Shown: positions 14,266-31,778, numbered from the stretch's first letter. The stretch is 41,183 bases of DNA from an uncultured Desulfobacterales bacterium (GCA_964346545.1 CAYFVR010000001.1:11440-52622); one strand, 5' to 3'. The notes: a model not told the origin generated them from the letters alone. Numbers and translations are program-made.

Positions 14266-15129
14266 ATGGATTACATCGACATAACGCTCCTGGACGATCT
14301 CCTGTCGGCGCTGATCCTGATCGCCGGCTTCTACTTGCTCTTCTTCGTCGGCAAGCTGGTGAACGACCTGCTGAACAAGGACTACAAGCTCACCTACGAG
14401 CTGGTGGAGCGGGACAACCCGGCCCTCGCCGTGGCCGTGGCCGGCTATTATCTCGGCCTCGTCTTCGCCATCGGCGGCGCGCTGGCGGGCCCCAGCCGCG
14501 GGATCGTGGAGGACCTGATCGATCTGGGCATCTACGGCGCCCTGGCCATCGTTTTGCTCAACCTGTCCTGGTTCCTTTGCGACCGGCTCATCCTCCGAAA
14601 GTTCAAGGTGACGGACGAACTCATCCGGGATCGCAACACCGGGACCGGCGCCGTCTCCTTCGGCGTCAGCGTGGCTTCGGGTCTCATCGTTTACGGCGCT
14701 GTGACCGGCCAGGGCGGCACCATCTGGACCGCCATCGGTTTCTGGGCCGTGGGCCAGTTGATCCTCGTCGTCGCCGGGCTGGTCTACGACCGGATCACCC
14801 CCTACGACGTCCACGCGGAGATCGAGCGGGACAACATGGCGGCCGGCGTCAGCTTCGGCGGGGCACTGGCGGCCATGGGCGTGGTGGTGGGCTTCGCCGC
14901 GGCCCGGGATTTCACCAGCTGGGCCGACGATCTGCCCGGCTTCGCGCTCATCGCCCTGTGCGGCCTCGTCATGCTGCCGCTGGTTCGGTTTCTGACGGAT
15001 CGGGTGCTGCTGCCCACCGTCAAGCTCACCGATGAAATCGTCAACCAGGAAACCCCAAATTCCGGGGCCGCCTTCATCGAGGCGCTGTCCTACATTTCCG
15101 GAGCCTTCGTCATCAGCTGGTGCCTCTGA
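14266..15129 (+). CDS. Membrane protein with four DUF350 repeats
   Basis: Four copies of the DUF350 motif: YKLTYELVERDNPALAVAVAGYYLG, FKVTDELIRDRNTGTGAVSFGVSVA, PYDVHAEIERDNMAAGVSFGGALAA and VKLTDEIVNQETPNSGAAFIEALSY. Each copy is followed by a TM helix. Confidence 0.8.
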   Translation: MDYIDITLLDDLLSALILIAGFYLLFFVGKLVNDLLNKDYKLTYELVERDNPALAVAVAGYYLGLVFAIGGALAGPSRGIVEDLIDLGIYGALAIVLLNLSWFLCDRLILRKFKVTDELIRDRNTGTGAVSFGVSVASGLIVYGAVTGQGGTIWTAIGFWAVGQLILVVAGLVYDRITPYDVHAEIERDNMAAGVSFGGALAAMGVVVGFAAARDFTSWADDLPGFALIALCGLVMLPLVRFLTDRVLLPTVKLTDEIVNQETPNSGAAFIEALSYISGAFVISWCL

Positions 15130-16709: not shown

Positions 16710-16989
16710 TTTTTTCATCGTTTTCCCGAAGTGGGGCGATTCCCCATCGTCGCTACATCGTTATCCCCATATCCGCGCCGGACGGGTATTTATGGCGGAT
16801 TTTCACGATGAAATCCCTTGACAACACTATGCTTTTCTGAATAGGAAAGATCATCTTGGATTTTCCACCCCCGGCCGATCTCCCCCACGCGGAACCTCGC
16901 CGGGAGAGGGACCGGTTTCGCACGATCCTCGCCAAACACCGTCAAACCAGATGGTCAACCCCAATACCAGCATGAAAACGGAGATTCTT

Positions 16990-19104
16990 ATGGGCGAAGC
17001 ACGATTCAACCAGCGGCGGACGTCGTCGACGTCACGGAAATGGGTATTGCTTCTTTGCATGGGGCTATTACTTTTCGGTTGCGCCCACATGCCTTCTCCC
17101 CAGGAGATGGAAGCCGAGCGGGAGGCCAACGCCCGTCAGGACGTGGAAGCCATCAAGCCGGCCATGGGATACGGCAATTTCGGAGAAGCGCCGTTGACCC
17201 TGGAAGACTGCATCCGGTACGCCCTCGACAACAATCTGGAGATGCGCATCGCCCGGTTGAACGAGGAGATCGCCGACCAGGAAAGCCTGGTGGCCAAACT
17301 CCAAATGCTCCCCAGCCTCTCCGCCGACGCCACCTACAAGCGGCGGGACGTCCTTCGCAAGAGCGACGCCTACAACTGGCTGCTCGACGAGGACCAGCCG
17401 GATTTCACGGTGTCGGAGCTGAAGGACAACACTCGGGCCAACCTGACCCTCACCTGGAACATCCTGGACACCATGATGGCCTACGTCCGGGGCAACGCCT
17501 CGGAAATGCAGGAAGAGGTGATCCGCCGGGAACGGGCCCGCCAAGCCCAACAGCTGGCCCTGGACGTGACCCGGGCCTATTGGCACGCCGCGGCGGTGGA
17601 AGACGCTCTGGATTACGTCCACGTGGTGGAGGCCAATCTGAAGCAGGTAAAACGCAACATGGACCAGGCCGTGGCCCGGGGCAGCTACGACAGCATGGCC
17701 GCCTCGGACGCGGAGCTTCGGCTCAAGGAATTGGAGCTGACCATCCGCCAGCTCCAGGCCAACCTCTCCAGGGAACGGCTCCAGCTCGCCCAGCTCATGG
17801 GCCTCAACCAGAACGTCCAGTTCACCCTGGCCCGGCCGCCCATCAAGCCCATCGTCGCCAACCTTCCCCACACCAAGGAGTTGAACATCGACCGGCTGGA
17901 AGAATACGCCCTGCTCCACCGGCCGGAGCTGTTCGCCAGCGACATGCAGGTTCGCATCCAGAAGGAGGAGGCCAAGAACAAGGTTCTGGCCATGTTTCCC
18001 GGAATTTCCATCTTCGCCGGGGGCCATTACGAGGACAACCGGCTGTTGCTTCAGAACAACTGGGCCACCGTCGGCGCCGGCATTGGTTGGGAATTGCTGG
18101 ACCTGCCGGCCAAATTCATGTCCTACAAGGGACAGAAGAAGGCCATCCAGATGGCCGAGGCCCAGCGGCTGATGTCCACCGTGGGCGTCATCACCCAGGT
18201 CCACATCGCACTGCTCGACTACGCCATCAAGGTGGACCGGTTCCGCCTGCTGGACGAAACCTACGCCTTGGCCAACAACCTCTTCGACATGGCCCAGACC
18301 AAGAACCAGGCCGGCCGCCTGCCGGAACTGGCGGTCACCCAGCGCCACCTGGAGGAGATGGCGGCCAAACTTCGACGGGACGAGGCCGTGGTGGACATGC
18401 TGGTGGCCCACAAGCGGCTCTGCGTCAGCATCGGCATGGATCCCCTGGAATGCGATCAGCGGGGAATGCTGGCCTCGGCCGGCGGGAGCGGCGCCGGGCT
18501 TTCCGGGAACGTTCGGGAGCTGAACTACACCGCCACCACCGGCATGAGAAAATGGCGCAGCACCGAGACTGGCTACATCCACATTGGTCCCACGCCGCCG
18601 GAAATCGACCCCATTAGCGGTTTGGGTCCGGAATACTTTGTGGAGGTGACCAACGGCCAAGAGAGCGACGCGATTATGGCTATCACGGGCACGGAATCGG
18701 GCATGATTTCCGGAACAAGTTCGGGTCCCATCGAGGACGCCGACCTGGATACCTGGGGCGTAACCCCGCCGGTTTCCACCCGCGACGGCGGCATGAGTCG
18801 AAGTTCCGACGGCGCCCCCGGCTACGCCGGTCCGGCGGCCGACCGCTTCCTCTGGCAGGTGCAGATGGGCGCGTTCTCCGAGCCTTCCGGCCCCACCAAG
18901 CGAATGAGCGAGGTGGAGGCCCTGAACCTCCGCATGCTCGACACCCGCGACACGGCCATCACCACCGCCCGGGTGCAGGGAAACTTGTTGAATCGGGTTC
19001 GCGTCCGCGGTCTGACCCAGGCGGAAGCCCAGGAACTGGCCCGCGAGCTGCGGGGCCGGGGCGTGGACCATTGGGTCATCGCGCCGGGAAGCGTCCACTG
19101 GTAG
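16990..19104 (+). CDS. TolC-family outer-membrane factor lipoprotein with a C-terminal SPOR (peptidoglycan-binding) domain
   Basis: The start is set at ATG 16990 (GGAG at 16980-16983, 6-nt spacer), giving MGEARFNQRRTSSTSRKWVLLLCMGLLLFGC (lipobox-like). LTLEDCIRYALDNNLEMRIARLNEEIADQE and a duplicated coiled-coil architecture indicate an OEP/TolC fold. The last 85 aa (18847-19101) are FLWQVQMGAFSEPSG...LLNRVRVRGLTQAEAQELARELRGRGVDHWVI, which fits the SPOR pattern (VQxGAF ... RVRVGxxxxxxEAxxxxxxL). Confidence 0.8.
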   Translation: MGEARFNQRRTSSTSRKWVLLLCMGLLLFGCAHMPSPQEMEAEREANARQDVEAIKPAMGYGNFGEAPLTLEDCIRYALDNNLEMRIARLNEEIADQESLVAKLQMLPSLSADATYKRRDVLRKSDAYNWLLDEDQPDFTVSELKDNTRANLTLTWNILDTMMAYVRGNASEMQEEVIRRERARQAQQLALDVTRAYWHAAAVEDALDYVHVVEANLKQVKRNMDQAVARGSYDSMAASDAELRLKELELTIRQLQANLSRERLQLAQLMGLNQNVQFTLARPPIKPIVANLPHTKELNIDRLEEYALLHRPELFASDMQVRIQKEEAKNKVLAMFPGISIFAGGHYEDNRLLLQNNWATVGAGIGWELLDLPAKFMSYKGQKKAIQMAEAQRLMSTVGVITQVHIALLDYAIKVDRFRLLDETYALANNLFDMAQTKNQAGRLPELAVTQRHLEEMAAKLRRDEAVVDMLVAHKRLCVSIGMDPLECDQRGMLASAGGSGAGLSGNVRELNYTATTGMRKWRSTETGYIHIGPTPPEIDPISGLGPEYFVEVTNGQESDAIMAITGTESGMISGTSSGPIEDADLDTWGVTPPVSTRDGGMSRSSDGAPGYAGPAADRFLWQVQMGAFSEPSGPTKRMSEVEALNLRMLDTRDTAITTARVQGNLLNRVRVRGLTQAEAQELARELRGRGVDHWVIAPGSVHW

Positions 19105-19289: not shown

Positions 19290-22200
19290 ATGTTGAACCT
19301 AATGAAGCTGGAAAATCGGATTGTGCTGGACGCGGCGGGCATGGACGCCGCCATGGACCATGCCGCCGACGGACCGGATGACGTCGGACCCAATCCGGAC
19401 GCGGAATCCGCCTCAATTCCCGACGCCCCCGACGTACATGCCGGCGCCGTCGCCGAAGTCGCCACCATGCTGTCCGCCGACGAAGGGGACGCCGCCGACG
19501 GAAGGCCGGAAGACATCGGCCCGATTCTCCGCCCCGCCGAGGGCTCCGACCCGTTGAACGTCGTGCTGATCGCCGACAATCTCCCGGATTTGCAAACGCT
19601 AAGGGACGCGATTCATCCCGACGCCAAAGTCATCGAATACGACGCCGACGCGGAATCGGCCCAAGAGGTGGTCGCTCGCGTGACCGCCGTCGCCGAATCG
19701 AACGGGTCGATTGAATCGCTGACCTTGTTGTCCCACGGCGGCAGTGGCTTTTTCCAGCTCGGCAACGAACGCATAACTACGGACAATCTCTCCGACAACG
19801 CGACCGCATGGAGAGCGCTGGATGAAGCCATGGAAGATGGCGGCCAGATTCATCTGATGGGCTGCAACGTGGCCGAAGACTCGGAAACCGGTCTGACCTT
19901 GCTGAACGGGGTGGCCGAGGCCACCCAAGCCACCGTTTTTTCCTCCAACGACATCACCGGCAAGGGGGGCGACTGGGAGCTGGAGACCGCTTCGGACGAG
20001 GCGCCCGGTCGGGCCGATCTTCCGCTGGACGTCGCCCTTCTGGGAGATTACGCCGGCCAGCTTCAGGACCCGCCGGTACAGTTCGTGCCGCCCACGGAAG
20101 TTTTCGGCCGGGAGGACGCCCGATCGGGCATCGTCATCACCCTGTTCGTTCGGAATGATGTCGATCCGGATTCCCTCCAAATCCAGGCAACCCCCGCCGG
20201 GGGAGACGACGTTATCCGACTGTCCGACATCGATCAGCCCGAGTTGGGCAGTCAAGTGCCTTATAACCCGCAACCCGGTCAGGTCCGGCCCCCCGCCGGC
20301 TACACCGGCTTCACCTGGGTGGCGTTCTACTCGCCTCAGGCCAACCAGTTTCACCCCAACGGCGATGAAACACCCATTACCGTTAGCGTCCAGTCGGGGA
20401 ACGGCGGCCAGGCGGTGGACGCAACCGAAACGTACACGCTGACCGTTGATCCCCTGAACGACGCGCCTTTTCTCAGGGAAGGTCTCGAAAGCACGGGGGA
20501 CTTCGTCGATGATTTCCGGAACGTTGGCACCATCGACATTGGCACTGTCGAAGAGGACGCCACCGATCCCGCAGGGATTCCACTGTCCACGCTCATCAAT
20601 CCGGCCATCTTGGACGTGGACGACGGTGATCCCACCGGCATTGCCATTATCGGAACGGATGTCGGCGGGGGCGGTGTCTGGCAGTTCAACAGCGGCGGCG
20701 GATGGGTGGATGTCGGCCCGGTATCCGCCGAAAGCGCGTTGGTGCTGGCGTCCAGCGTCCAGGTTCGCTTCCTCCCGCAAGGCCAATGGAGCCAGGAACA
20801 AACCGAGGCGACACTTGAATTCCGGGCCTGGGACCAGACCGACGGCAACGCCTCCGGCGCAACCGGGGTCAACACCGAGGTCGGCCCCCGCCCCTCCGAG
20901 CCGGGTGACACCGCGGCCTACAGCAAGGCGACCGGCAATCTGCGCGTCGAGGTCACCCCGGTGAACGACGCTCCGGAACCGCCAACCGTTGAAATCGACG
21001 ATCCCTACATCGAAAACGGGTTCGTGACGCCCGACCAGACCGGCGTCCCCAAGGAACTGGGCATCACCCTCGGCGAAGACCCCGACGACACCGATTTCAC
21101 CGAGGTGGTCGTGGAAATCACCGACGGCTTCCAGAACGATTCCCGGGGCGTGGACGTTCTTTTCTTGGCGGGGAGCCTTCCGTCCACCATCCAGGCCCAG
21201 GTCGAAACCGGGCGGGTGGTGTTCACGCCCGCCGACGGACTGGAATCGGCGCCGATTTCGGATTTTCAATTGGCCGTGGACCAGGTGCGGTACGAACATG
21301 CGGGCGGCCCCGATCTCCTGGGTCCGGGCGAGGAAGCGAGCGCCCTGAACGGCGACGATCCCATCGAGCGTCCCCGCGCCATCGAAGTCACCGTTTCCGA
21401 CGCCAACGCCAGCGAAGCCGACAACGGCATTCAGGATTCCACCGGCGAGGGAGAACTCCCGGTGGACGCGGTCAACGACGGGCCCGACGCCGAGCCGGAA
21501 AGCGACGAGCTGGTCTATTCCCTGAACGTGAACCAGCCCACCCGTCTTGCGCTGGTGGACAATACCTTCACGCTGGAGGATGTGGACGACGTGGATTTGG
21601 CCACGTCCAACCTGCCCCGGGGGGTCGGCGAAATTCGGGTGCGGATTGAAGATGGCTACACCGCCGCCGTGGACGAACTGGAATTTGACGGCGCGGGCTT
21701 CAACGACGTTTCCGTCAGCGTTCAGGAAGGGGGGCGGACCCTGGTGCTGACCCCGACCAACGGCCAGGCATTCACCCTTTCCCGCGCCGAAGACGTGGCC
21801 CGCCAAGTATCCTACGTCAACAACGCCGCCGACGCGGCCCAGGCCAACGAAGACGCGGATCGGGTCGTCGCCATCACCGTCACCGACAACAATTCCGGCG
21901 GCGAGGGCGACTTTTCGGAACCCCAGATTCCCGCGCCGACCGATCCGCAATTCGTGGACGGCCCCAAAAGCGACACGGTCACCCGAACCATTCAAATCGA
22001 CGCCGACGCGCCGCCCGAACTCGATTTCGGGGACGGCATCTTCGAGGACAACGGGAATCCCAACGATCCCTTCTTTTCGCCCCGGACGCCCGACCAGGTG
22101 GAAGGCTTCACGGTCCAAGACATCGTCGCCAGCTTCAACCTGCCCAACCAGCCGCCCAACCAGGGGGTCGAGGCGCTGGCCATCACGGCGGTGGACGACG

Positions 22201-24674
22201 CCAACGGCCAGTGGCAATTTCTCGATTCCACCGGCCAGTGGGCGCCCATCGACAACGGCCAGCTCGACGAGGCCAACGCCCTGTTGCTGGGTCCCACGGA
22301 CCAGATTCGGTTCATTCCGGACGAAAATTTCAACACCGACGAGGAGCCCGGCGCCGTCACGCCGACCATCACGGCCAAGTCATGGGACACCGCCGAATTC
22401 GCCGGCACCCCGGGGACTTTCGTGAACACCGTGGGCGACAACGTCGCCTTCAGCCAGGAAGGCACGGGCGAGTTGCCGGTGCTGGCCGTCAACGACCGGC
22501 CGGACATCGTTTTGGGTCCCAACCTGGACCCGGACAACGACGACGTGGTGAACGAACAACAACGGCTGGACGAGAGCGGCCGAATCACCTTCACCGGCAT
22601 CACTCTTCAGGACATCGACCTGGCCAAGGGGGAGGAAGACGGTCCCAATCCCGGCCAGATCGACCTGACGGTTTCGGTGGATCGGGCCAGCAGCCAAGTC
22701 TTTCTGGACAGTCTGGCCGGCGTCACGATTATTGGCGGAGCCAACGGCTCCCAGACCGTGACCATCCGGGGCGATTTGGCCGACGTCAGCTCCGCCATTC
22801 AGACCGGCCTTCGCTACGAGGCCGACCTGAACGAGCTGAACAACGCGGCGTCGGATCAAGCCTACGACACGATTAACATCACCTCCAACGACCTGGGCAA
22901 CGCCGGTCTTCCCGGTTCGCTCCAGGACGCGGACAACATCCAGATCGCCCTCTTCCCGGGGGACGCCCCGCCAGAGATCGACCTGGACGAAAACGACGAC
23001 GGCGGCGCCGACCCGGAAAACGACATCCCGCCGGCGGGTCCCCAGGCCCCGGGGAACGAGGACACCGGCAACTACAACGTCTTCTTCATCGAAGACAGCG
23101 ACTGCACCCCGGTGCTCATCGCCGACGAAGACATCCTGATCGCCGACGACAATGGCCTGATCCAGCGCATGACCGTGGAGTTGACAAATCGGCTGGATTC
23201 CGGCGGCCCGGCCTCCCCGCCGCCGGAACAGGGAGGGCAACTCTTGGCGCTGGACCAGAACGCCGAGTCCGGACTGCTGGAATCCCTGGGCTTTAGTCAG
23301 GACGTACTGGACGCCGTCAACGCCGATCCAAACACCAATATCACGGTGAACGTTGCCCAGCAGACCAACGCCGCCGGCCAGGTGGTGGCCTTGACGCTGG
23401 AATTCCAGGGAATCGCGTCCACCGAGGCCTATCAGCAAATCCTGAACACGGTCACCTACGACAACGACTCTCAAAACCCCAGCGACACCACCCCCGCCGG
23501 GGAGAGCGTGCGCCGGGTGGCCGCGGTGACGGTGACCGACGTGCCCATCGACGGCGAGGGCCCGGGCCAGAGCAGCACCGCCTTTTCCCGAATCGCCATC
23601 ATCCCCGTCAACGACGCGCCGGTCAACCAGGTTCCCGGTGAAATTATCGTTCCCTCCGGCACCATCGTGGACATCGGCGGCCAGCTCGACGTGGGCGACG
23701 TGGAAGGGCCGGCGGAGATGTCCGTCAACCTGGGCGTCATCTTCGGCGTCTTGAACGTCGCGGAGGGCCAAGGCGTCCAGATCGACGGCAACGGCACGGC
23801 GGACCTGACCCTGACCGGCTCCATCGAAGCGGTCAACGCGGTTCTGGATTCGCTGTCCTACGCGCCGCCGGCGAATTTCACCGGCGAGGACACCTTGACC
23901 GTCACCTCCAACGATTTCGGATACGAGGGAATCAACCCGTCCTTCGTGGGAAGCAACGGCGTCCGTTGCGTGGTTGCGCCTTTCGACGAGGCGGGAAATC
24001 CCATCGTGGACGAACGCGGCGACCTCGTCCCCGACGGGCCCGACGAAAAAACTCCCAACGATCGGGACGCCCTGACCGACGTGGACACCATTCTCATCCG
24101 GGTGGCCCAATCCGATCCGGACACCCTGCCGGAACCGCCGACGCCGCCCCCGAGCCCGCCGCTCCAGCCCATCGCCCCGCCGGACGCCGACGGTCCCGAC
24201 GGCATCAGCCCCGGCCCCGTCAATCTCCCCGGCATGGTGGGCGTAACCGGCGGGCAGGCCGGCATTTCGGCCCGCGGCATCGGCCCCGGCGGCGAGGGCT
24301 TCATGGACTTCTGCTCCATCGAGGAGGCCCTGCGCAGCCATCTGGGCTGCCGCTTCGCCAACACCCTGAATCCGGAATCCCAGTTCAGTTCCCTCTCCTG
24401 GGGCGACATGACCGACCTGGGCTGGAAGCCGCCCTCGCTGTATCTGGACGAGGAGTACGACCTGTATTCCCAGCTCTTCATGGAAGAGCCGGGCGACCCG
24501 GGCTTCAACGTGGAGGCGGGCGCCTTCGGCGTGGACCTGGGCGGCCTGCCCGAAACGCCGGAGCGGGTCTTCCGGGAAGGCCAAAACCGGGAAACCTTCA
24601 ACGAGATGGAACCCAACGAAATTCGCGAAGCCTTTTTCGCCAACCGGAAAAACCTTGATCGAACCGGACGATAA
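19290..24674 (+). CDS. Giant (1,794 aa) acidic surface/secreted-type protein with an LExR-IxL N-terminal motif, a DUF4347 domain, multiple cadherin-like/VCBS-like modules punctuated by xVNDxP, a Pro-rich linker and a distinct C-terminal domain
   Basis: GGGAGG lies 8 nt upstream of ATG 19290. The N-terminus MLNLMKLENRIVLDAAGMDAAMDHAAD has no hydrophobic signal peptide. The DUF4347 region (about 19551-19986) reads NVVLIADNLPDLQTLRDAI...VIEYDAD...IESLTLLSHGGSGFFQLGNERIT...IHLMGCNVAE...ATVFSSNDITGKGGDWELE. N-D-x-P boundary motifs (LNDAP, VNDAP, VNDGP, VNDRP, VNDAP) occur near 20457, 20964, 21474, 22491 and 23609. The Pro linker is at about 24126-24200. Confidence 0.9.
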   Translation: MLNLMKLENRIVLDAAGMDAAMDHAADGPDDVGPNPDAESASIPDAPDVHAGAVAEVATMLSADEGDAADGRPEDIGPILRPAEGSDPLNVVLIADNLPDLQTLRDAIHPDAKVIEYDADAESAQEVVARVTAVAESNGSIESLTLLSHGGSGFFQLGNERITTDNLSDNATAWRALDEAMEDGGQIHLMGCNVAEDSETGLTLLNGVAEATQATVFSSNDITGKGGDWELETASDEAPGRADLPLDVALLGDYAGQLQDPPVQFVPPTEVFGREDARSGIVITLFVRNDVDPDSLQIQATPAGGDDVIRLSDIDQPELGSQVPYNPQPGQVRPPAGYTGFTWVAFYSPQANQFHPNGDETPITVSVQSGNGGQAVDATETYTLTVDPLNDAPFLREGLESTGDFVDDFRNVGTIDIGTVEEDATDPAGIPLSTLINPAILDVDDGDPTGIAIIGTDVGGGGVWQFNSGGGWVDVGPVSAESALVLASSVQVRFLPQGQWSQEQTEATLEFRAWDQTDGNASGATGVNTEVGPRPSEPGDTAAYSKATGNLRVEVTPVNDAPEPPTVEIDDPYIENGFVTPDQTGVPKELGITLGEDPDDTDFTEVVVEITDGFQNDSRGVDVLFLAGSLPSTIQAQVETGRVVFTPADGLESAPISDFQLAVDQVRYEHAGGPDLLGPGEEASALNGDDPIERPRAIEVTVSDANASEADNGIQDSTGEGELPVDAVNDGPDAEPESDELVYSLNVNQPTRLALVDNTFTLEDVDDVDLATSNLPRGVGEIRVRIEDGYTAAVDELEFDGAGFNDVSVSVQEGGRTLVLTPTNGQAFTLSRAEDVARQVSYVNNAADAAQANEDADRVVAITVTDNNSGGEGDFSEPQIPAPTDPQFVDGPKSDTVTRTIQIDADAPPELDFGDGIFEDNGNPNDPFFSPRTPDQVEGFTVQDIVASFNLPNQPPNQGVEALAITAVDDANGQWQFLDSTGQWAPIDNGQLDEANALLLGPTDQIRFIPDENFNTDEEPGAVTPTITAKSWDTAEFAGTPGTFVNTVGDNVAFSQEGTGELPVLAVNDRPDIVLGPNLDPDNDDVVNEQQRLDESGRITFTGITLQDIDLAKGEEDGPNPGQIDLTVSVDRASSQVFLDSLAGVTIIGGANGSQTVTIRGDLADVSSAIQTGLRYEADLNELNNAASDQAYDTINITSNDLGNAGLPGSLQDADNIQIALFPGDAPPEIDLDENDDGGADPENDIPPAGPQAPGNEDTGNYNVFFIEDSDCTPVLIADEDILIADDNGLIQRMTVELTNRLDSGGPASPPPEQGGQLLALDQNAESGLLESLGFSQDVLDAVNADPNTNITVNVAQQTNAAGQVVALTLEFQGIASTEAYQQILNTVTYDNDSQNPSDTTPAGESVRRVAAVTVTDVPIDGEGPGQSSTAFSRIAIIPVNDAPVNQVPGEIIVPSGTIVDIGGQLDVGDVEGPAEMSVNLGVIFGVLNVAEGQGVQIDGNGTADLTLTGSIEAVNAVLDSLSYAPPANFTGEDTLTVTSNDFGYEGINPSFVGSNGVRCVVAPFDEAGNPIVDERGDLVPDGPDEKTPNDRDALTDVDTILIRVAQSDPDTLPEPPTPPPSPPLQPIAPPDADGPDGISPGPVNLPGMVGVTGGQAGISARGIGPGGEGFMDFCSIEEALRSHLGCRFANTLNPESQFSSLSWGDMTDLGWKPPSLYLDEEYDLYSQLFMEEPGDPGFNVEAGAFGVDLGGLPETPERVFREGQNRETFNEMEPNEIREAFFANRKNLDRTGR

Positions 24675-24679
24675 TCTTC

Positions 24680-24708
24680 GGGCGGGCCGGCGATCCACCG
24701 GCCCGCCC
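24680..24708 (+). promoter_or_regulatory. Intercistronic GC hairpin between the giant gene and the M50-adaptor gene
   Basis: GGGCGGGCCGG (24680-24690) and CCGGCCCGCCC (24698-24708) form a perfect 11-bp stem with a 7-nt loop and no T-run. The hairpin fills most of the 48-nt gap between TAA 24674 and ATG 24723. Confidence 0.5.
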
Positions 24709-24722
24709 ACCCGCCTCGCGCC

Positions 24723-26912
24723 ATGACCAACGACGCCGATTCCCCCCGCCAAAATCCGGCCGGAGCCGCGCCTTCCGCTCCCGCCACCCTGGAAGACTAC
24801 CTGGAAACGCCTTGGCGGGGGTTGCGCCCGGATTTGAAACTGTTCCCCGGCCCGGTGGAATACGACGGCCAGCGTTCCTGGGTGCTGGAAGACCCGGTGC
24901 GGGGCAACACCTATCGGCTGGGCCACGCCGAAGGCGAATTGATCTACCGCCTCGTCGCCGGCCGCTCCCCCGAGTCGGCCCTTCGCCACCTGTACCAGAC
25001 CACCACCCTCCGGCCCACCCCCGCGGACGCGATCGCCTTCCTGACCATGCTCCAGCGGGAGCGGCTGACCCGGCTGCCCGCCGACTTCGTCGAAAAATCG
25101 GCCGCGGCCGGCGGCGACGCGGGCGAGCCTTCGGCGTTGGACCAACTTCGTCAAGGAAGCATCTTTTTCCGGATTCCCCTGCTCCGTCCCGACGGATTCC
25201 TCTCGCGAACCGTCCGCTGGGCGTCCATGCTCTGGTCTCCCCCCCTCCGCTGGTTCTACCTCCTGTGCGGGCTGACCGGCCTGGCGCTCACGGCGCAGGA
25301 GATCGAGGCCTACCTGGGCACGGTCAACTACCTGTTCACCCCCCGGGGCGGGCTGGCGTTCCTGGCCTGCCTCGTCGCGCTCAAAATCGGCCACGAATTC
25401 GCCCACGCCTACGCCGCCAAGGCCATGGGGCTCCACGTCCGAAGCATGGGAATCATGCTCATCGTCGTCTGGCCGCTGCTCTACACCGACACCACCGACG
25501 CCTGGAAACTGCCCGACCGCCGGCGGCGCATGGCCATCAGCGCCGCCGGGGTGACGTTCGAACTGGCGGTGGCCGGGGTCGCCCTGTTGCTCTGGGCCAG
25601 CGTCCCGGACGGGATCGCCCGCAGCATCTTCTTTTTCCTTTCCAGCGCCTCCCTCATTTCCACGGTCCTGATCAACCTCAACCCGTTCATGCGCTACGAC
25701 GGATACTATCTGCTGATGGACCTGTGGGGCATCGACAACCTGCGGCCCCGGGCCTTCGCGGTGCTGCGCCACGGCGCCCGGCGGCTGCTGCTGGACTGGA
25801 AGGCCCCGTCGCCGGAAATTCATCCCCACCGGCGGGCCATGCTGGTCTACGGCTTTTTCGCGGCCCTCTACCGGCTCTTCATCGGGGCGACCATCGCCCT
25901 TGCGGTCTACCACCTGCTGTTCCCCGCCCTGGGGCTGGCGGTCTTCCTGCTTCAGCTCTGGCTGTTCCTGATTCGGCCGGTCATCGGGGAGGTTCGCGCC
26001 GCATGGCGGGGCCGGCGCCACTGGGGCTCCCGCTTTCGGATCGCGGCCAGCGGCCTGGGATTCGCCGGCCTGCTGGCCCTTCTGGTTCTGCCCCTGCCCC
26101 GCTTCGAGACGGTTCCCTCCCTGCTGCTGTTCCAGGAGGCGATCCGGGTGGAAGCCCCGTCCCCCGGGCGGCTCTCCGAGGCGCTCCCCGCCGAGGGACG
26201 AACCGTGACCGAGGGCGAACCCCTGGTTCGGCTAACCAGCGACACCCTGGCCTTCGAACGGGAACAGGCCGAATTCGATCTTCAAAAGGTCCGGGCCGGC
26301 ATCCGGAATCTGGGGACCAGCCCGGAGCAGGTCGCCTACGGCCGCTGGCTGGAGGCCGAGGCGGAGCGACTCCAGAGCATTCTGGACAAATATCGGGAGG
26401 CCATGGCCCAGATGGAAATCCGGGCGCCCGCCGAAGGCCGGATCGTGGACGTCAACCCGGATCTGTACGCCGGGGCCTTTCTGCGCCGGGGGGTTCACCT
26501 GTTCACGGTGATGGCGCCGTCCCGTCACGAGGTCAAGGCCTTCGTCCACGAAAAGGCCATGCCGGACCTTCGAGTGGCGGCCATCCGCGAGGCGACCGTC
26601 CGCCTGCCCGCCCCGGAGATCCCGGCCATCCGGGTCCGGCTGGCGGAGCGGAGCCGGTTTCCGGCGCATCGCCTGCCCAACCAAAGTCTGTTTGACATCG
26701 CCGGCGGCCCTATTGTATCCGTGGAAGATTCCCTGGGACGCCGGCCCCGGGACGCCTATTTCACCCTGACCTTCGAGGTGCCGGACCCGCCGCCGGGCCG
26801 CTTGGCCCATGGGCTTCCGTCCCGGATCTGGCTGCGAACGGCGGGGCGGCCGCTCTTGGTCCGCGCCGCCGCCGGCATTTGGCAACCCCTCTCCGAGCGA
26901 GGACTTTTCTGA
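24723..26912 (+). CDS. Fusion protein: cytoplasmic N-terminal domain, polytopic M50 (site-2-protease-like) zinc metalloprotease, and a C-terminal HlyD/membrane-fusion-protein-like periplasmic region
   Basis: HEFAH (25392-25406) sits inside a TM segment (LACLVALKIGHEFAHAYAAKAMG), and NLNPFMRYDG (25674-25703) is the NxxPxxxxDG second M50 motif. After further TM helices come lipoyl/beta-barrel-like adaptor motifs: IRVEAPSPGRLSEALPAEGRTVTEGEPLVRL, coiled-coil FEREQAEFDLQKVRAG...LEAEAERLQSILDKYREAMAQMEIRAPAEGRIVDV. Confidence 0.8.
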   Translation: MTNDADSPRQNPAGAAPSAPATLEDYLETPWRGLRPDLKLFPGPVEYDGQRSWVLEDPVRGNTYRLGHAEGELIYRLVAGRSPESALRHLYQTTTLRPTPADAIAFLTMLQRERLTRLPADFVEKSAAAGGDAGEPSALDQLRQGSIFFRIPLLRPDGFLSRTVRWASMLWSPPLRWFYLLCGLTGLALTAQEIEAYLGTVNYLFTPRGGLAFLACLVALKIGHEFAHAYAAKAMGLHVRSMGIMLIVVWPLLYTDTTDAWKLPDRRRRMAISAAGVTFELAVAGVALLLWASVPDGIARSIFFFLSSASLISTVLINLNPFMRYDGYYLLMDLWGIDNLRPRAFAVLRHGARRLLLDWKAPSPEIHPHRRAMLVYGFFAALYRLFIGATIALAVYHLLFPALGLAVFLLQLWLFLIRPVIGEVRAAWRGRRHWGSRFRIAASGLGFAGLLALLVLPLPRFETVPSLLLFQEAIRVEAPSPGRLSEALPAEGRTVTEGEPLVRLTSDTLAFEREQAEFDLQKVRAGIRNLGTSPEQVAYGRWLEAEAERLQSILDKYREAMAQMEIRAPAEGRIVDVNPDLYAGAFLRRGVHLFTVMAPSRHEVKAFVHEKAMPDLRVAAIREATVRLPAPEIPAIRVRLAERSRFPAHRLPNQSLFDIAGGPIVSVEDSLGRRPRDAYFTLTFEVPDPPPGRLAHGLPSRIWLRTAGRPLLVRAAAGIWQPLSERGLF

Positions 26913-26913
26913 C

Positions 26914-27717
26914 ATGGCCCGTTTTCGGCTGACGCCGCACCTTGTCCGCGCCCTTATGGCGCTTCTTCTCTCCATTCCCGCAACCGCTTTCGCCCAAGAC
27001 GCCCCGGCCCCCGGGGAATCCCCCGCGGATTCCATGGCGCCGGCGGAGCCGCCCGGCGTGTTCAAGCCCTTCCCCGTGGTGTTCGAGGCCCGCCAGAAGG
27101 CGGTGCTTTCGGCCGAGCGGGCGGGCGCCCTCACCAGCCTCAAGGCCGACGTGGGCGACACCGTCAAAAAAGGCGCGGTGATCGCCCAGGTGGACGTGGG
27201 GGAGGCCGCCCTCCGAAAAAAACGGGGGGAAGTGGCCCTCGGCCATCTGGAAAAGCAAATTCAGGAACTGACCCAGCTCAACCAGCGGGGACTGGCCACC
27301 AACGAGGAGGTGCAAAAGGTCCGCATGGAGCGGGACGTGACCCGGGCCGACGTGCAGATCTACAAGCGGCAGATCGCCCAGTCCACCATTCGCGCGCCGT
27401 TCGCCGGCATGGTGGTCCGCCGTCACGTGGAGCCCCACGAGTGGGTCACCGCCGGCCAGCCGGTGTTGGACATGGTCAATCTGGACCGCATCCGGGCCGT
27501 CGCCAACCTGCCCGCCCACATCGCCGTGCGGCTCAAGGCGGGCGACATCCACACCCTGTACATCCATGATCTGGAAGCCGAGATGAAGGGCACGGTGGAC
27601 GCCGTGGCCCCGGAGGTGGACGAGCGAAGCAATACCGCCCAAGTCATCTGGAGCGTGGACGCCGGCGGCCGACGGCTGTTGCCGGGCATGAAGGGAGAGG
27701 TCCGGGTTGAGCCGTAA
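26914..27717 (+). CDS. Periplasmic adaptor (membrane fusion protein, HlyD/RND-adaptor family), Sec-exported
   Basis: ATG 26914 lies 1 nt after the upstream stop. The signal peptide is MARFRLTPHLVRALMALLLSIPATAFA-QD. Motifs: AERAGALTSLKADVGDTVKKGAVIAQVD (lipoyl-like), a coiled coil, then TIRAPFAGMVVRRHVEPHEWVTAGQPVLDMVNLDRIRAVANLP. Confidence 0.8.
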   Translation: MARFRLTPHLVRALMALLLSIPATAFAQDAPAPGESPADSMAPAEPPGVFKPFPVVFEARQKAVLSAERAGALTSLKADVGDTVKKGAVIAQVDVGEAALRKKRGEVALGHLEKQIQELTQLNQRGLATNEEVQKVRMERDVTRADVQIYKRQIAQSTIRAPFAGMVVRRHVEPHEWVTAGQPVLDMVNLDRIRAVANLPAHIAVRLKAGDIHTLYIHDLEAEMKGTVDAVAPEVDERSNTAQVIWSVDAGGRRLLPGMKGEVRVEP

Positions 27718-29131
27718 ACCGCCGGAAATCGGGGAGACCATCGGGGGCGCGGCCCCCGACGGAACGAGCGCGGCGGGACGAAGCGTCCCGCCGGCCGCGG
27801 GGGCGACCCGGGAGCAGGTGCTGACCCGGTTCATCCGGATGTGCACGGCCGTCTTTTCCACCCCGGTCTCCCAAGAGGCCGCCGCCATCGCCGTCAACCG
27901 GGTGTCGGAGCTGACCCGGGTGGATCGGGCGGTCCTGGTCCGGCTGGACGGAAAGCCAACCATCGCCGCCGTCAACGGCGGCGGCGCGGCGGCCCAGGAC
28001 AGCGCTTTCGCCGACGCGGTGGAAACGGCCCGAAAACGGTTCGGCCGCCGGCCCGAGGCGGTGGTGGTGCCGGTCGTGTCCGACGCCGAACGGGAATCGG
28101 CCCCCTCGCTCCACGCCGTTCAGCGGGCCATGGGCGGCGCCCAGATTCTGTGGCTGCCGCTCTGGCTCTCCAGCGATCAGAGCGTCCCGCCGCGCCAAGC
28201 CCTGTGGCTGGAGCGGTGGCACGGCAACCGCTGGGAGCGGGGCGACGTGGAGCTGTTGCAGCACGCCGCCCTCTTTCTGGGCCACGGTCTCCTCCGGTCC
28301 CGGACGCGGCCCAAGGCGCGGGGCCGATACCTTCGGCTGGGGCTTCTGGCCGCGCTGCTGCTTTTTCTGGCCATGCCGGTCACCTCTCGGGTCACCGCCC
28401 CCGCTCGGGTGGCGCCCGACCGTCCCCACCATATTTTCGCGCCCATGGACGGCATCATCAAGGAGTTGCTGGTGCGGCCCGGCCAATGGGTGGAGCCCGG
28501 CGACGTGCTCTACCGCTACGACGCCCGGGTGCTGGACAAACGGCTGGACGAGGCCTTTCGCCAGGTGGCGGTGGAACGGGCCAAGCTGGCGCGGCTCCAG
28601 GGCGCGGCCCACCGAGATCCCGAGGCCCGGGCCGAACTGCCGGTTCAGGATTTGGAGGTCAAGCGGGCCGAGGCGGAAACCGTCTTTTACGCCCAGCAGC
28701 AGGATCGGGCCGACGTGCGCACCGCCCAGCCCGGCGTCGTCGTGCTGGACGATCCCGACGCCCTGATCGGCGCGGCGGTCCAGACCGGCCAGGCGGTCAT
28801 GAGCGTGGCCGACCCGGCCCAGACCAAGCTGCGGCTCCGGGTGCCCGCCGGCGACGTGGGCTTTCTGGAGGAAGGCGCCCGGGTCTCCATCCGGCTGGAC
28901 AGCAATCCGCTTCGGAACCTGCCGGCCATCATCACCCGGATCGGCTTCGAGGTCCGCCTCTCCGAAACCGGGACGCCGTCGGTGGCCGCCGACGCCGTCT
29001 GGGTGGGCGACCCGCCCGACGCGCAGCCGGGCCAGAAAGGCACGGCCCGCATCTTCGGCCCCTCCACCGTCATGGCCTTTCAAATTCTGCGCAAACCGTT
29101 CATCGCGCTCCGATCCATCACCGGCTTTTGA
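27707..29131 (+). CDS. HlyD-family adaptor with an N-terminal cytoplasmic GAF-like domain and one TM helix
   Basis: TTG 27707 follows a GGGAGAGG SD and overlaps the upstream stop by 11 nt. The N-terminal part of about 190 aa (FIRMCTAVFSTPVSQEAAAIAVNRVSELTRVDRAVLVRLDG ... QILWLPLW ... WERGDVELLQHAALFLGHGL) reads like a GAF fold. The TM helix is LRLGLLAALLLFLAMPV. Adaptor motifs follow: IFAPMDGIIKELLVRPGQWVEPGDVLYRYD ... DVRTAQPGVVVLDD ... GQAVMSVADPAQTKLRLRVP. Confidence 0.75.
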   Translation: MSRKPPEIGETIGGAAPDGTSAAGRSVPPAAGATREQVLTRFIRMCTAVFSTPVSQEAAAIAVNRVSELTRVDRAVLVRLDGKPTIAAVNGGGAAAQDSAFADAVETARKRFGRRPEAVVVPVVSDAERESAPSLHAVQRAMGGAQILWLPLWLSSDQSVPPRQALWLERWHGNRWERGDVELLQHAALFLGHGLLRSRTRPKARGRYLRLGLLAALLLFLAMPVTSRVTAPARVAPDRPHHIFAPMDGIIKELLVRPGQWVEPGDVLYRYDARVLDKRLDEAFRQVAVERAKLARLQGAAHRDPEARAELPVQDLEVKRAEAETVFYAQQQDRADVRTAQPGVVVLDDPDALIGAAVQTGQAVMSVADPAQTKLRLRVPAGDVGFLEEGARVSIRLDSNPLRNLPAIITRIGFEVRLSETGTPSVAADAVWVGDPPDAQPGQKGTARIFGPSTVMAFQILRKPFIALRSITGF

Positions 29132-29225: not shown

Positions 29226-31778
29226 ATGAAGCGGTTTTCCCGGCTCCGGAGGCGGCTGTTCAAACCGACCTCCCTCCGTCACAAGCTCCACCTGATCGTG
29301 GGGCTCTTTTTTATCTTTCCGGTGCTCGGCTTTCTCTATTTCGCGGCGCGCCACGATTTCCTGCAAGACGCCTACCTGCCGCTGTTTTTCCTGGGGCTGC
29401 TCACCTTTTCCCTGCTGGGCATCTTGATGCTGCGGCGGCTTTTCGACGAGATCGCCGGCTTTTCCCGCCAGGCGGCCCGTCGGCTTGAATCCGAGGAGGC
29501 CGCGGCGGACCCCGACGAACTTCACGGGCTGGTCCACGCCTTTTCGGCCATCGAGCGGAAGTTTTCCGCCGCCATGAGGCGGCTGGAAAAAAAGACCACC
29601 GACATCGCGGTGCTCAAGGAGCTGTCCGACCTCTGCTACGTGACCTTCGACCCCGAGGAAATTCTCTACGTCACCCTGGAACGGGCCCTGGTGCTGACCG
29701 AATCGGAGATCGGCTCCGTTCTGATTCTGGAGCGGGGAGAGCCCAAGACCTTCGTGGTCAAGGCCTGCATCGGGCTGGGCGAGCGCGTCCGCATCGGAGA
29801 CCGGCTCCCCTTCGACCAGAGCGTGGCCAAGTACGCCGTGATCAACAAATCCCCCCTGATCGTGGAGGACATCGAACGCGACACCCGGTTCGGCCGGGCC
29901 AACCGCCCCCACTACGGCACCAAATCCTTCGTCTGCATGCCCATCAAAACCAGCAAGGACATCGCGGGCGCGCTGACCATTTCCCGAAAAAACGAAGACC
30001 GGGGCTACACGCCGGAGGACGTGGAGGCGCTCGTTCCGCTGTTGAGCAACGCGGCCTTCACCTACGAAAATCTTCGGCTGATCAAGGAAAACGAGCGGTG
30101 GTCCCGTCGGTTGCGGACCATGGAGAAGGTGTTCGGCCTCATCAACTCCAGCTTTCGGGGACGAGAACTGATCGGCGCGGTGCTGGGCGAAATCCACGCG
30201 GTGCTTCCCTTCGCCTACGCGCTGATCCTGCTGCGGGAACCGGGCCGCACGCATCGAATGCAAATCCACGACATGGCCGGAAGCGCCCCGGGCGGGCTGG
30301 TCCGGGGCGGCGGCCTGGGAGTTTCCGGCTCGGTCATGGAGCGCGTGCTGGGACGGAAGACCTTCCGGATCGTCGAGGACACCCGGAAGCTGGACGGCGA
30401 AACCGACCGGGCCATCCTGCCGCCCGGAGATGCGGCGGCGGGCCTGCTGGCCCCGATCACCGAGGACGGATCGGCCGTGGGGGTGCTGGTGATGGGCTTC
30501 GAGTCGTCGGCGGACATGGCCGAGGCCCGGGAGGCGGCGAGCTGGGCGGCGGGCGGCGTCTCCCTGGCGGTGGAGCGGGACCGGCTGTCGGCGGGCCTGA
30601 TCCGGCGGGACCGGGAGCTGGACTCGATCCGGCAGATCGGCCGGGCATTGGCCTCCTCCACCTTCGACACCCAAAAAGTCTTGAGCTACACCATGGACAT
30701 GATCCGGGTGCTCATCAACGCCGAGGCGGGCGCGCTGTTTCAGGTGGAAAACGCCGAGCTGGTCAGCGCGGCGCTGTTCAACATCGATCTGGGCGATCTG
30801 GACGCCATCCGCCTGCGGCCGGGCCAAGGGGTGGCCGGCGTCGTGGCGGCCCGGGGAGAGCCGTTGATCGTCAACGACCCCGACCGGTCCCCCCATTTCC
30901 ATCCCCAGGTGGACGATCTCACCGGATTCCGCACCCGCTCCATCCTCTGCGTGCCGATCATCTCCCAAGGCAGAGTCATCGGCGTCATCGAGGTGCTGAA
31001 CAAGTTGAGCGGGGATTTCACGCTCAAGGACCGGGACCTGCTGGTTTCCATCGCCGCGTCGGTCAGCATCGCCATCGAAAACGCGCGGCTGTACAAGGAA
31101 ACCGTGGCCATGGCCGAACACGAACGGGGCATCCGGCGGGTGTTTCAGAAATTCGTCCCCCGCCAGATTCTGGATCAGATTCTTCACGGCGCCGAGGGCG
31201 GCCAGACCGGGCTGAACGAACTCAAAACCGTCACCCTGCTCAACATCGACATTCGCAAATCTTCGGATTTCGTCCGACGGGTGGGCCCCCAGAAAACGGT
31301 GGCGCTGCTCAATCATTTCTTTTCGGTGATGGGGGAAATCGTTTTCGCCCACAAGGGCATCGTGGACAAATACCTGGGAGACGGCTTTCTGGCGCTGTTC
31401 GGCGCGCCGGTCTCCAGCACCCGGGACGCCGAAAACGCGGTGAGCGCGGCCCTGGAGATGAAAAACGCCATGGAGCGGGTCAACGCCCACTGCCGCGAGA
31501 CCTACGGGGAAACCGTGACCATGGGCATCAGCGTCCATACCGGAGAAATGGTGGTGGGAAACATCGGGTTTGAAATGAAGATGGACTACACGGTGATCGG
31601 GGACCCGGTGAACATCGTTTTCCGCCTCCAGGAGCGGACCCGGCCCTTTCCCGACGGCATTCTCGTCACGGAAAACGTCTGCCGGGCCGCCCTCTCCCCC
31701 CTGGAGGTGGAACCGGTTTCCGAGCCGCTGGCCGGCCTTCGGATCTTGGAGCTGAAGGGCCGGCGCGGCGGCGGATAA
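29226..31778 (+). CDS. Membrane-anchored 3xGAF class III adenylate/guanylate cyclase
   Basis: Two N-terminal TM helices (LIVGLFFIFPVLGFLYF, LPLFFLGLLTFSLLGILML) are followed by three GAF-like blocks. The third reads GQGVAGVVAARGEPLIVNDPDRSPHF...TRSILCVPIISQGRVIGVIEVLNK. The cyclase domain (about 31130-31700) has TLLNIDIRKSSDF ... IVDKYLGDGFLALFGAP ... GISVHTGEMVVGNIG ... DYTVIGDPVNIVFRLQE, so the metal Asp residues and the K, N and R positions are present. Confidence 0.9.
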   Translation: MKRFSRLRRRLFKPTSLRHKLHLIVGLFFIFPVLGFLYFAARHDFLQDAYLPLFFLGLLTFSLLGILMLRRLFDEIAGFSRQAARRLESEEAAADPDELHGLVHAFSAIERKFSAAMRRLEKKTTDIAVLKELSDLCYVTFDPEEILYVTLERALVLTESEIGSVLILERGEPKTFVVKACIGLGERVRIGDRLPFDQSVAKYAVINKSPLIVEDIERDTRFGRANRPHYGTKSFVCMPIKTSKDIAGALTISRKNEDRGYTPEDVEALVPLLSNAAFTYENLRLIKENERWSRRLRTMEKVFGLINSSFRGRELIGAVLGEIHAVLPFAYALILLREPGRTHRMQIHDMAGSAPGGLVRGGGLGVSGSVMERVLGRKTFRIVEDTRKLDGETDRAILPPGDAAAGLLAPITEDGSAVGVLVMGFESSADMAEAREAASWAAGGVSLAVERDRLSAGLIRRDRELDSIRQIGRALASSTFDTQKVLSYTMDMIRVLINAEAGALFQVENAELVSAALFNIDLGDLDAIRLRPGQGVAGVVAARGEPLIVNDPDRSPHFHPQVDDLTGFRTRSILCVPIISQGRVIGVIEVLNKLSGDFTLKDRDLLVSIAASVSIAIENARLYKETVAMAEHERGIRRVFQKFVPRQILDQILHGAEGGQTGLNELKTVTLLNIDIRKSSDFVRRVGPQKTVALLNHFFSVMGEIVFAHKGIVDKYLGDGFLALFGAPVSSTRDAENAVSAALEMKNAMERVNAHCRETYGETVTMGISVHTGEMVVGNIGFEMKMDYTVIGDPVNIVFRLQERTRPFPDGILVTENVCRAALSPLEVEPVSEPLAGLRILELKGRRGGG

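Follow-up and report, generated by a model that had tools for sequence, protein, structure and literature searches.

A fusion of RRE-like, M50 protease and periplasmic adaptor domains as a candidate leader-processing subunit of a TolC-type apparatus for giant bacterial proteins

Why would a bacterium join an intramembrane protease to a periplasmic adaptor in one polypeptide, and encode it between a giant repeat protein and two further adaptors? The question is raised by a 41,183-nucleotide stretch of DNA from an uncultured Desulfobacterales bacterium (GCA_964346545.1 CAYFVR010000001.1:11440-52622; hereafter the window, meaning the whole stretch that was analysed), in which a single open reading frame (ORF) at 24723..26912 on the + strand encodes a 729-aa protein. 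An earlier note, made from the sequence, had read this protein as a catalytically intact M50 (site-2-type) metalloprotease fused to an HlyD-type adaptor, with a cytoplasmic N-terminal part loosely reminiscent of PqqD/RRE-type peptide-recognition domains. Pfam and NCBIfam searches, AlphaFold2 (AF2) modelling, Foldseek comparison, homologue alignment and topology prediction divide it into an RRE-like domain, an M50 site-2 protease (S2P) core and a periplasmic adaptor protein (PAP) domain. We propose, with moderate confidence, that the fusion is the inner-membrane leader-recognising and processing subunit of a dedicated TolC-type apparatus that spans both membranes and serves giant adhesin-like proteins.

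The M50/S2P core lies in a membrane domain of seven helices (residues 173-455; 25239..26087, + strand). Both M50 motifs are intact and at the positions first claimed for them: the zinc-binding and catalytic HEFAH (His224, Glu225 and His228; residues 224-228, 25392..25406, + strand), identified by motif search and alignment, and NLNPFMRYDG (residues 318-327, 25674..25703, + strand), in which Asp326 is the presumed third zinc ligand. Peptidase_M50 (PF02163, Pfam) scored 32.2 bits against a gathering cut-off of 27.2. The best NCBIfam match to the protease core was NF041824, daptide_HExxH (E=2.7e-43, residues 123-416); its score of 148.5 bits lies below the equivalog cut-off of 300 and only profile positions 77-362 are covered, and by this profile the fusion is a relative of the daptide protease family, not a member. 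The NCBIfam YydH/LiaK model also matched (E=1.8e-5). Profile matches to PDB entries at the HExxH helix were weak (RseP, 8.7e-4; MJ0392, 3e-3), and the PDB profile search returned no solved structure of a comparable fusion. In 18 homologues at 29-58% identity, His224, Glu225, His228, Asn318, Asn320, Pro321, Asp326 and Gly327 are invariant, and the same alignment has a set of N-terminal invariants (Arg35, Gly49, Asp57, Pro58, Glu70, Leu115, Pro156 and Leu160). The invariance of the catalytic motifs over such divergence indicates that they are selected and did not arise by chance.

A full-length AF2 model built on the homologue alignment (mean pLDDT 82.4) places the membrane helices at residues 173-192, 207-234, 266-293, 298-318, 370-398, 401-429 and 437-455. 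The HExxH motif is carried within the predicted hydrophobic helix 207-234, and the NxxPxxxxDG motif begins where helix 298-318 ends on the cytoplasmic side and continues into the following loop. A beta-hairpin at residues 242-255 of the model matches in position the re-entrant hairpin of S2Ps. With seven transmembrane helices, the predicted cytoplasmic loops carry 18 lysine and arginine residues and the periplasmic loops 2, which places the N-terminal 170 aa in the cytoplasm, the C-terminal 265 aa in the periplasm and the zinc site near the cytoplasmic face. The predicted orientation is therefore N-in/C-out with the adaptor in the periplasm, in agreement with what the earlier note had supposed for both ends of the protein.

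The C-terminal PAP (or membrane-fusion protein) domain covers residues 460-729 (26100..26909, + strand) and comprises lipoyl strands, an alpha-hairpin (507-528/534-562) and a beta-barrel. HlyD_3 matched at 40.4 bits (cut-off 22.2) and HlyD_D23 reached 20.7 bits on residues 475-626, below its cut-off of 30 (both Pfam); RND_mfp (NCBIfam) matched residues 475-627. The C-terminal 265 aa resembled MacA, ZneB, EmrA, MexA and AcrA in sequence profile (E 3.5e-16 to ~1e-5) as well as in fold (Foldseek E 2e-13 to 5e-9, probability 1.0). An HlyD-type adaptor had been suspected in the last ~260 aa, and both the HlyD_3 score and the fold confirm it. By domain, motif, profile and predicted location alike, the fusion belongs to both the M50 and the HlyD/PAP families.

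The RRE-like domain spans residues ~35-115 (24825..25067, + strand) on the cytoplasmic side and is defined by AF2, Foldseek and conservation. The AF2 model shows strands at residues 39-45, 51-57 and 62-66, followed by helices at 68-78, 83-93 and 100-112; modelled alone, the N-terminal domain reached a pLDDT above 93 over residues 30-120. The stretch SWVLEDPVRGNTYRLG (residues 52-67), previously described as beta-hairpin-like and followed by helices, corresponds to strands 2 and 3 of this three-stranded sheet, and three helices indeed follow. Five of the N-terminal invariants (Arg35, Gly49, Asp57, Pro58 and Glu70) fall inside the domain, and Leu115 marks its C-terminal edge. In the PDB, the first seven Foldseek matches to the N-domain model are RREs without exception, namely TfuB1 (6jx3), TbiB1 (5v1u/5v1v) and CteB (5why), with probabilities of 0.77-1.0; every later match was at 0.23 or below. 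TM-scores relative to the lasso-B1 targets were 0.58-0.69, CteB being excepted as its RRE is a small part of a 418-residue chain. The entries 6jx3, 5v1u and 5v1v are lasso-peptide B1 proteins crystallised with leader peptides. In the model, then, an RRE fold (a sheet of three strands and a three-helix bundle, winged-helix-like) is borne out, and the suggested PqqD/RRE likeness stands on predicted structure and fails on sequence profile. A natural precedent exists among the ribosomally synthesised and post-translationally modified peptide (RiPP) pathways: in the daptide protease MpaP, the founding member of the NF041824 family, an RRE is fused N-terminally to an intramembrane S2P that removes the leader peptide, and the M50 protease EpeP is thought to cleave and also export its peptide.

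What the RRE-like domain might recognise is suggested by the neighbouring genes. The fusion gene sits in a same-strand run of genes for an outer-membrane factor (OMF), the giant protein, the fusion, a small PAP, a mid-size PAP and a cyclase. The OMF (16951..19104, + strand; 717 aa) is TolC-like (Pfam OEP, E=1.2e-40) with a lipoprotein-type signal LLFGC, and this OEP-family gene belongs to the same operon as the fusion. The giant repeat protein (19290..24674, + strand; 1794 aa), the candidate cargo and substrate, has no Sec signal peptide. Near its start, at residues 7-17 (19308..19340, + strand), stands the leader motif LENRIVLDAAG, within the peptide stretch MLNLMKLENRIVLDAAGMDAA; NF012209, a custom leader hidden Markov model (HMM) and alignment A3 all locate it. 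It is a motif of the LEPR-XLL type (NCBIfam NF012209, LEPR-8K). Giants beside related fusions share it at their N-termini: the window's MLNLMKLENRIVLDAAG has counterparts in Desulfonema (KLEDRIVLDGAA), Pseudomonas (SLEPRMLFDGAVA), Nitrospira (ALESRIMFDGA), SAR11 (ALEPRLMLDGAAV), Scalindua (QLEKRIVFDGAAV) and rhizobia (ELEQRIAFDAAGA), and the L, E, R, D and A of the motif are invariant in alignment A3. On the custom HMM the window giant scored 24 bits, in a continuous series with canonical LEPRMLFDGA proteins. The giants themselves, 800 to more than 3000 aa long, carry repeats of extracellular type that vary from one giant to another (cadherin-like, Big, BNR, laminin-G or pentaxin), and occur with or without a DUF4347 domain. 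No RTX repeats, HemolysinCabind or type I target domain were detected in the window giant and five complete orthologous giants, uncleaved C-terminal signals being poorly defined.

The motif marks the starts of very large proteins. A regular expression found 36 matches in the first 80 aa of large ORFs versus 2 in 690,000 other residues, and the custom HMM gave 46 matches at 19.7-35.9 bits among annotated ORFs, with the next best at 6.3. In a six-frame scan of the loci, all 47 strong matches fell at the starts of very long frames except one, whose frame is clipped by the locus edge; the best non-leader match reached 11.8 bits, and the motif began no small ORF. A small-peptide substrate was rejected on this ground. 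The reverse test used 80 metagenome loci fetched by a DUF4347 pattern. Within the fetched DNA, the RRE-M50 core was present in 20 of 44 loci with a LEPR-bearing DUF4347 protein and in none of 36 without LEPR (Fisher's exact p=6e-7); restricted to loci of at least 12 kb, the counts were 16/27 versus 0/9 (p=0.002). These results link the fusion to the leader motif rather than to DUF4347, which was rejected as the determinant of the linkage on the 0/36 count.

The same architecture recurs widely. The closest full-length homologues are from Desulfobacterales (86-90% identity in Desulfococcaceae metagenome-assembled genomes, 58% in Desulfonema ishimotonii), and remoter ones come from Gammaproteobacteria and Desulfovibrio. 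When residues 1-460 (RRE and M50) were searched against 1.84 billion representatives of clusters at 50% identity, 1801 clusters matched at E<=1e-30; among the best 150, nearly all are 690-750 aa long, the length of the full three-part fusion. A scan of one genome per species found a relative in at least 594 species genomes. Carriers include Pseudomonas (many species), Azospirillum, Rhizobium, Neorhizobium, Pelagibacteraceae, Nitrospira (among them Ca. N. defluvii), Planctomycetota, Scalindua, Halomonas and Hyphomicrobiaceae. The full-length homologues go by generic database names ('HlyD family efflux transporter periplasmic adaptor subunit', 'putative peptide zinc metalloprotease protein', 'site-2 protease family protein').

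Gene maps of five loci and an ORF/phmmer map of 86 loci define a conserved module. Throughout the maps it comprises the fusion with a small PAP and a mid PAP, in most cases accompanied by an OMF and a very large gene, in an order that varies by clade; loci from Desulfonema, Gammaproteobacteria, Desulfovibrio and elsewhere contain the OMF, both PAPs, the fusion and the giant. In the 46 loci with at least 8 kb on each side (the full-flank set), the small PAP adjoins the fusion in 44 and the mid PAP in 45, and an OMF and a giant gene with the leader motif are each present in 33. All-against-all clustering of the flanking ORFs in the 86 loci found no other widely conserved gene, no ATPase and no pump; further conserved components of the module were sought in this way, and the flanks gave lineage-specific genes only. 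In the window itself, Pfam and NCBIfam searches detected no ABC, RND or MFS transporter. The ABC transporter that is the hallmark of type I secretion is accordingly missing from the 41-kb window, and no conserved ATPase flanks the 86 related loci.

On the domain identities, the topology, the catalytic invariance, the size of the family, the gene module with no linked ATPase or pump, and the link to the leader motif, we base the following model. The cytoplasmic RRE-like domain would bind the LEPR-XLL-type motif at the N-terminus of the giant (here MLNLMKLENRIVLDAAG), probably by strand addition, like RREs on RiPP leaders. The bound N-terminal region would thereby be offered to the M50 zinc site near the cytoplasmic membrane face, where the leader would be cut. 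The fused adaptor, together with the two separate adaptors, of which one is soluble or signal-anchored and the other has a sensor-like domain in the cytoplasm, may bridge the periplasm to the lipoprotein TolC-like channel, and processing would in this way be physically coupled to the passage or docking of the giant. Candidate energy sources are an unlinked transporter, the proton-motive force, and a ratchet driven by cadherin/Ig repeats folding outside the cell. Coupling of cleavage to transit or to docking at a TolC-like channel had been suggested before. The association with channel and giant draws support from the leader motif and from a gene neighbourhood that is conserved across many phyla (more than 80 loci); what we infer is RRE-leader binding, cleavage, the transport direction and the source of energy.

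Several points weigh against this model. Cleavage, binding and export are predicted from sequence and model. The module contains no energy-transducing component, which leaves export by the apparatus alone with no known mechanism, and S2Ps are not known to act as protein-conducting channels. The match to the daptide protease family falls short of the equivalog cut-off (148 vs 300 bits). For the RRE matches, Foldseek E-values are modest (5.6e-3 to 0.4), and Pfam, including PqqD/RRE, finds nothing in residues 1-170 even at E<=10; taken together, these two results mean that the RRE assignment rests on predicted structure. On the substrate side, the window giant scored 14.8 bits on NF012209 (E=0.016), just under the cut-off of 17. 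Finally, about a quarter of the full-flank loci have no LEPR giant within 10 kb; in several of the loci that miss the OMF or the LEPR giant, the OMF gene or the start of the giant gene runs beyond the fetched DNA.

Other explanations of the locus have to be weighed on the same evidence. The one that we rank as the main rival, and consider unlikely, is a release or retention device: an unlinked type I ABC transporter would export the giant C-terminus first, and the RRE-M50-PAP complex would only hold its N-terminus at the inner membrane and cut it to release or mature the adhesin, as a cytoplasmic-side analogue of the LapG/LapD control of LapA. The lack of an encoded energiser fits such a device, as do the sensor-like cytoplasmic domain of the mid PAP and the GAF-cyclase gene that follows the module in the window's clade; giant adhesins with N-terminal retention elements are, as general knowledge, an established type I theme (LapA/LapG). 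It is harder to reconcile with an OMF and three adaptors in the module itself, the hallmark of a self-contained conduit, with a scan of five giants that detected neither RTX repeats nor C-terminal target domains of the type I kind, and with the absence of a conserved ABC gene nearby in the 86 loci. We see very little likelihood that the fusion matures and exports a small RiPP- or bacteriocin-type peptide, in the manner of EpeP/YydH and MpaP, with the giant gene as an unrelated neighbour. RiPP proteases do provide the best NCBIfam matches (daptide_HExxH, 2.7e-43; YydH/LiaK, 1.8e-5), and RRE domains are otherwise known from RiPP pathways, but the six-frame scan placed the leader motif only on very long or edge-clipped frames and never on a small ORF, RiPP-modifying enzymes are not conserved in the flanks, and across phyla the placement of the giant genes varies together with that of the module.

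The S2P type of the catalytic core also invites a signalling role, in which the M50 domain would cut an anchored regulator (e.g., an anti-sigma factor, as RseP and SpoIVFB do) while the adaptor senses the state of the envelope or channel. ECF sigma/anti-sigma genes are not conserved near the module, however, the fusion has an RRE-like domain on its cytoplasmic side instead of a PDZ or CBS domain, and the tight linkage of OMF, PAPs and giant would go unexplained; such regulated intramembrane proteolysis is in our judgement highly improbable. Least credible of all is an accessory role in small-molecule efflux, in which the OMF and its three adaptors would work for an unlinked RND, ABC or MFS pump and the M50 domain would be a mere membrane anchor. 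Automatic annotation ('HlyD family efflux transporter periplasmic adaptor subunit') and an adaptor fold nearest to MacA, AcrA and MexA speak for it; yet the catalytic and RRE residues stay invariant across deep divergence, a constraint that an anchor would not call for, a linked pump gene is absent, and the association with LEPR-bearing giants is specific.

The model of a leader-processing subunit can be set beside systems that are already understood, and we rate the module as a combination of two known kinds, namely tripartite TolC-dependent assemblies and RRE-S2P leader peptidases. The best family-level match is to the RRE-S2P proteases of RiPP pathways (daptide MpaP/DapP, EpeP/YydH), in which an N-terminal RRE-type domain likewise precedes an M50 core; their RRE is expected to bind a leader motif at the N-terminus of the substrate, and the leader would then be removed by the protease. 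Unlike these, the fusion has an extra transmembrane helix and a 265-aa periplasmic adaptor, occurs in Gram-negative hosts with an OMF alongside, has candidate substrates of 800 to more than 3000 aa instead of short peptides, and is accompanied by no linked modifying enzymes. Peptidase-containing ABC exporters, of which the colicin V system CvaB-CvaA-TolC is a generally known example, resemble the module, as proposed here, in tying inner-membrane leader removal to adaptor- and TolC-dependent export. There, the protease is a cytosolic C39 cysteine peptidase, whereas the fusion carries a membrane-embedded zinc M50 protease; it joins the protease to an adaptor and not to a transporter, with neither nucleotide-binding domains nor an ABC gene. 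The module also has three different adaptors, and its leader is LE(P)RxxxDxA in place of a double-glycine type.

Type I systems for giant adhesins (LapA/LapEBC/LapG/LapD and SiiE/SiiCDF; PMC8277102) share with the module a Sec-less giant repeat adhesin, a dedicated OMF and adaptor, and an N-terminal element that is targeted, in the module presumably, by a dedicated protease. The module differs from them in lacking an ABC transporter, in its N-terminal motif, and in using an inner-membrane M50 protease with a cytoplasm-facing site, LapG being a periplasmic cysteine protease; no RTX repeats were detected in its scanned cargo proteins. The regulatory S2Ps RseP, SpoIVFB and MJ0392 also carry HExxH and NxxPxxxxDG, placed within membrane helices or at their cytoplasmic ends, and like the fusion they have a re-entrant beta-hairpin following the HExxH helix. 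The sequence similarity is very weak (E ~1e-3), PDZ and CBS domains are replaced by RRE and PAP domains, and the genomic context is unrelated to sigma-factor signalling. The tripartite efflux adaptors MacA, AcrA, MexA, ZneB and EmrA, finally, have the same lipoyl/alpha-hairpin/beta-barrel fold and an OMF encoded alongside, but the inner-membrane partner in the fusion is a covalently attached protease and no pump, and three paralogous adaptors occur together.

Fusion proteins of this kind are present in databases by the thousands under generic names only, and the module is undescribed in the literature that we found. Our search, which did not reach most subscription journals and therefore falls short of proof, returned no paper on the fusion, the module or the role of the LEPR-XLL motif; apparent 'M50' matches in efflux reviews turned out to be residue numbers or DOIs. 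A 2026 preprint about Chlorochromatium giant proteins describes ordinary type I components. If the model is correct, it would assign a function to two widespread features, both annotated but unexplained: the LEPR-XLL motif that very large proteins of bacteria carry at their N-termini, and the thousands of 'HlyD family / site-2 protease' fusions in Pseudomonas, Azospirillum, rhizobia, SAR11, Nitrospira, Planctomycetota, anammox bacteria and sulfate reducers. Leader recognition by RREs would then reach beyond RiPP biosynthesis. A broader version, which we put forward tentatively and regard as doubtful, is a so far unrecognised, ABC-free secretion pathway widespread in Gram-negative bacteria, in which the RRE would read the LEPR-XLL leader, the zinc protease would admit or prime the cargo, a TolC-type duct would provide the exit and the drive would be other than a dedicated ATPase; on this version RRE domains would extend from small-peptide natural products into protein secretion. 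The locus raises the question of how a TolC-type assembly works that has three adaptors and no encoded pump, and in which only a protease crosses the inner membrane more than once. Several Pseudomonas carriers, such as P. thivervalensis DSM 13194, P. mediterranea CFBP 5447, P. citronellolis and P. nitroreducens, can be cultured and manipulated genetically, which makes these predictions directly testable.

Some further features of the fusion and of its candidate substrate deserve mention. Residues 262-277 of the fusion (KLPDRRRRMAISAAGV; window 25506-25553), a cytoplasmic stretch after the beta-hairpin, are faintly LEPR-like, and in several orthologues the LEPR HMM gives the corresponding segment 2-6 bits. 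The likeness is probably due to chance; a pseudo-substrate role may also be considered. In the window giant, DUF4347 occupies residues 91-256 (19560..20057, + strand; Pfam E=5e-29). Alignments A3 and A4 show in it a conserved 'SHG' followed ~40 residues on by a nearly invariant 'YGC' and then by 'TGADVAAS.D.TG..GGDW.LE'; the spacing of His and Cys recalls the catalytic pair of caspase/CHAT-type cysteine peptidases, which suggests that the domain might cut itself. Chain G of PDB entry 9qpe is named 'DUF4347 domain-containing protein' (profile E=1.8e-4), and P. aeruginosa PA0256, a DUF4347 protein, is listed as a putative Hcp-dependent effector of the type VI secretion system. The C-terminal ~130 aa of the giant (window 24200-24674; …DPGFNVEAG…FNEMEPNEIREAFFANRKNLDRTGR) are kept in Desulfobacterales orthologues (locus L001, from Desulfonema; locus L009, 135-509) and not in other clades, and may form an anchor or a second signal.

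The remaining genes of the module also show individual traits. The small PAP (26914..27717, + strand; 267 aa) matches HlyD_3, HlyD_D23 and RND_mfp (E=1e-43). If it began at 26809, as mechanically listed, it would share 104 nt with the fusion gene; an ATG one base past the fusion stop, at 26914, yields a typical signal peptide, MARFRLTPHLVRALMALLLSIPATAFA-QD (cleavable Sec-type, ATAFA-QD), and is the likelier start. The mid-size PAP (27707..29131, + strand; 474 aa) has a cytoplasmic domain of ~200 aa, one transmembrane helix at ~208-226 and a PAP domain. Its TTG start at 27707 overlaps the end of the small PAP gene by 11 nt, which suggests translational coupling from small to mid PAP. The cytoplasmic domain (window 27707-28330) gives a weak GAF match (E=0.009) that was not seen in the mid PAP orthologues of Pseudomonas or SAR11. 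At 717 aa the OMF is unusually long, with a weak C-terminal SPOR-like extension (E=9e-4); were this weak match genuine, the channel would be linked through it to peptidoglycan. Between the giant stop and the fusion start, a gap of 48 nt contains a perfect 11-bp hairpin of G and C only (24680..24708, + strand; RNA fold -30.3 kcal/mol, z=-2.1) with no T-run after it. The hairpin may serve attenuation or RNA processing, and could set the ratio of cargo to machinery expression.

Around the module, the genes differ between lineages. Downstream in the window lies a gene for a GAF-GAF-adenylate/guanylate cyclase (29226..31778, + strand; Pfam), which also follows the module in Desulfonema ishimotonii (L001, 16085-18625). 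It may be a lineage-specific regulator, and together with the weak GAF match of the mid PAP it hints at cyclic-nucleotide control in the clade of the window and Desulfonema. In the Desulfonema locus an IS605-family OrfB/TnpB gene lies between the mid PAP and the cyclase (L001, 14783-15955). Ahead of the OMF gene, the window and Desulfonema both have genes for a DUF350 membrane protein and for a spermidine-synthase-like protein that bears a long extension at its N-terminus (window 14266-16709; L001, 262-2656); these genes stand outside the wider module. Pseudomonas loci (e.g., P. thivervalensis, L076, 5074-7509 and 12098-14973) have genes for a GNAT acetyltransferase, a sulfotransferase and a protein with a phage-tail-collar domain that separate the fusion from the LEPR giant, and a protein with PPDK_N and PEP-utilising domains upstream of the small PAP; these lineage-specific products (GNAT, phage-tail-collar, sulfotransferase and PEP-utilising) may modify the cargo.

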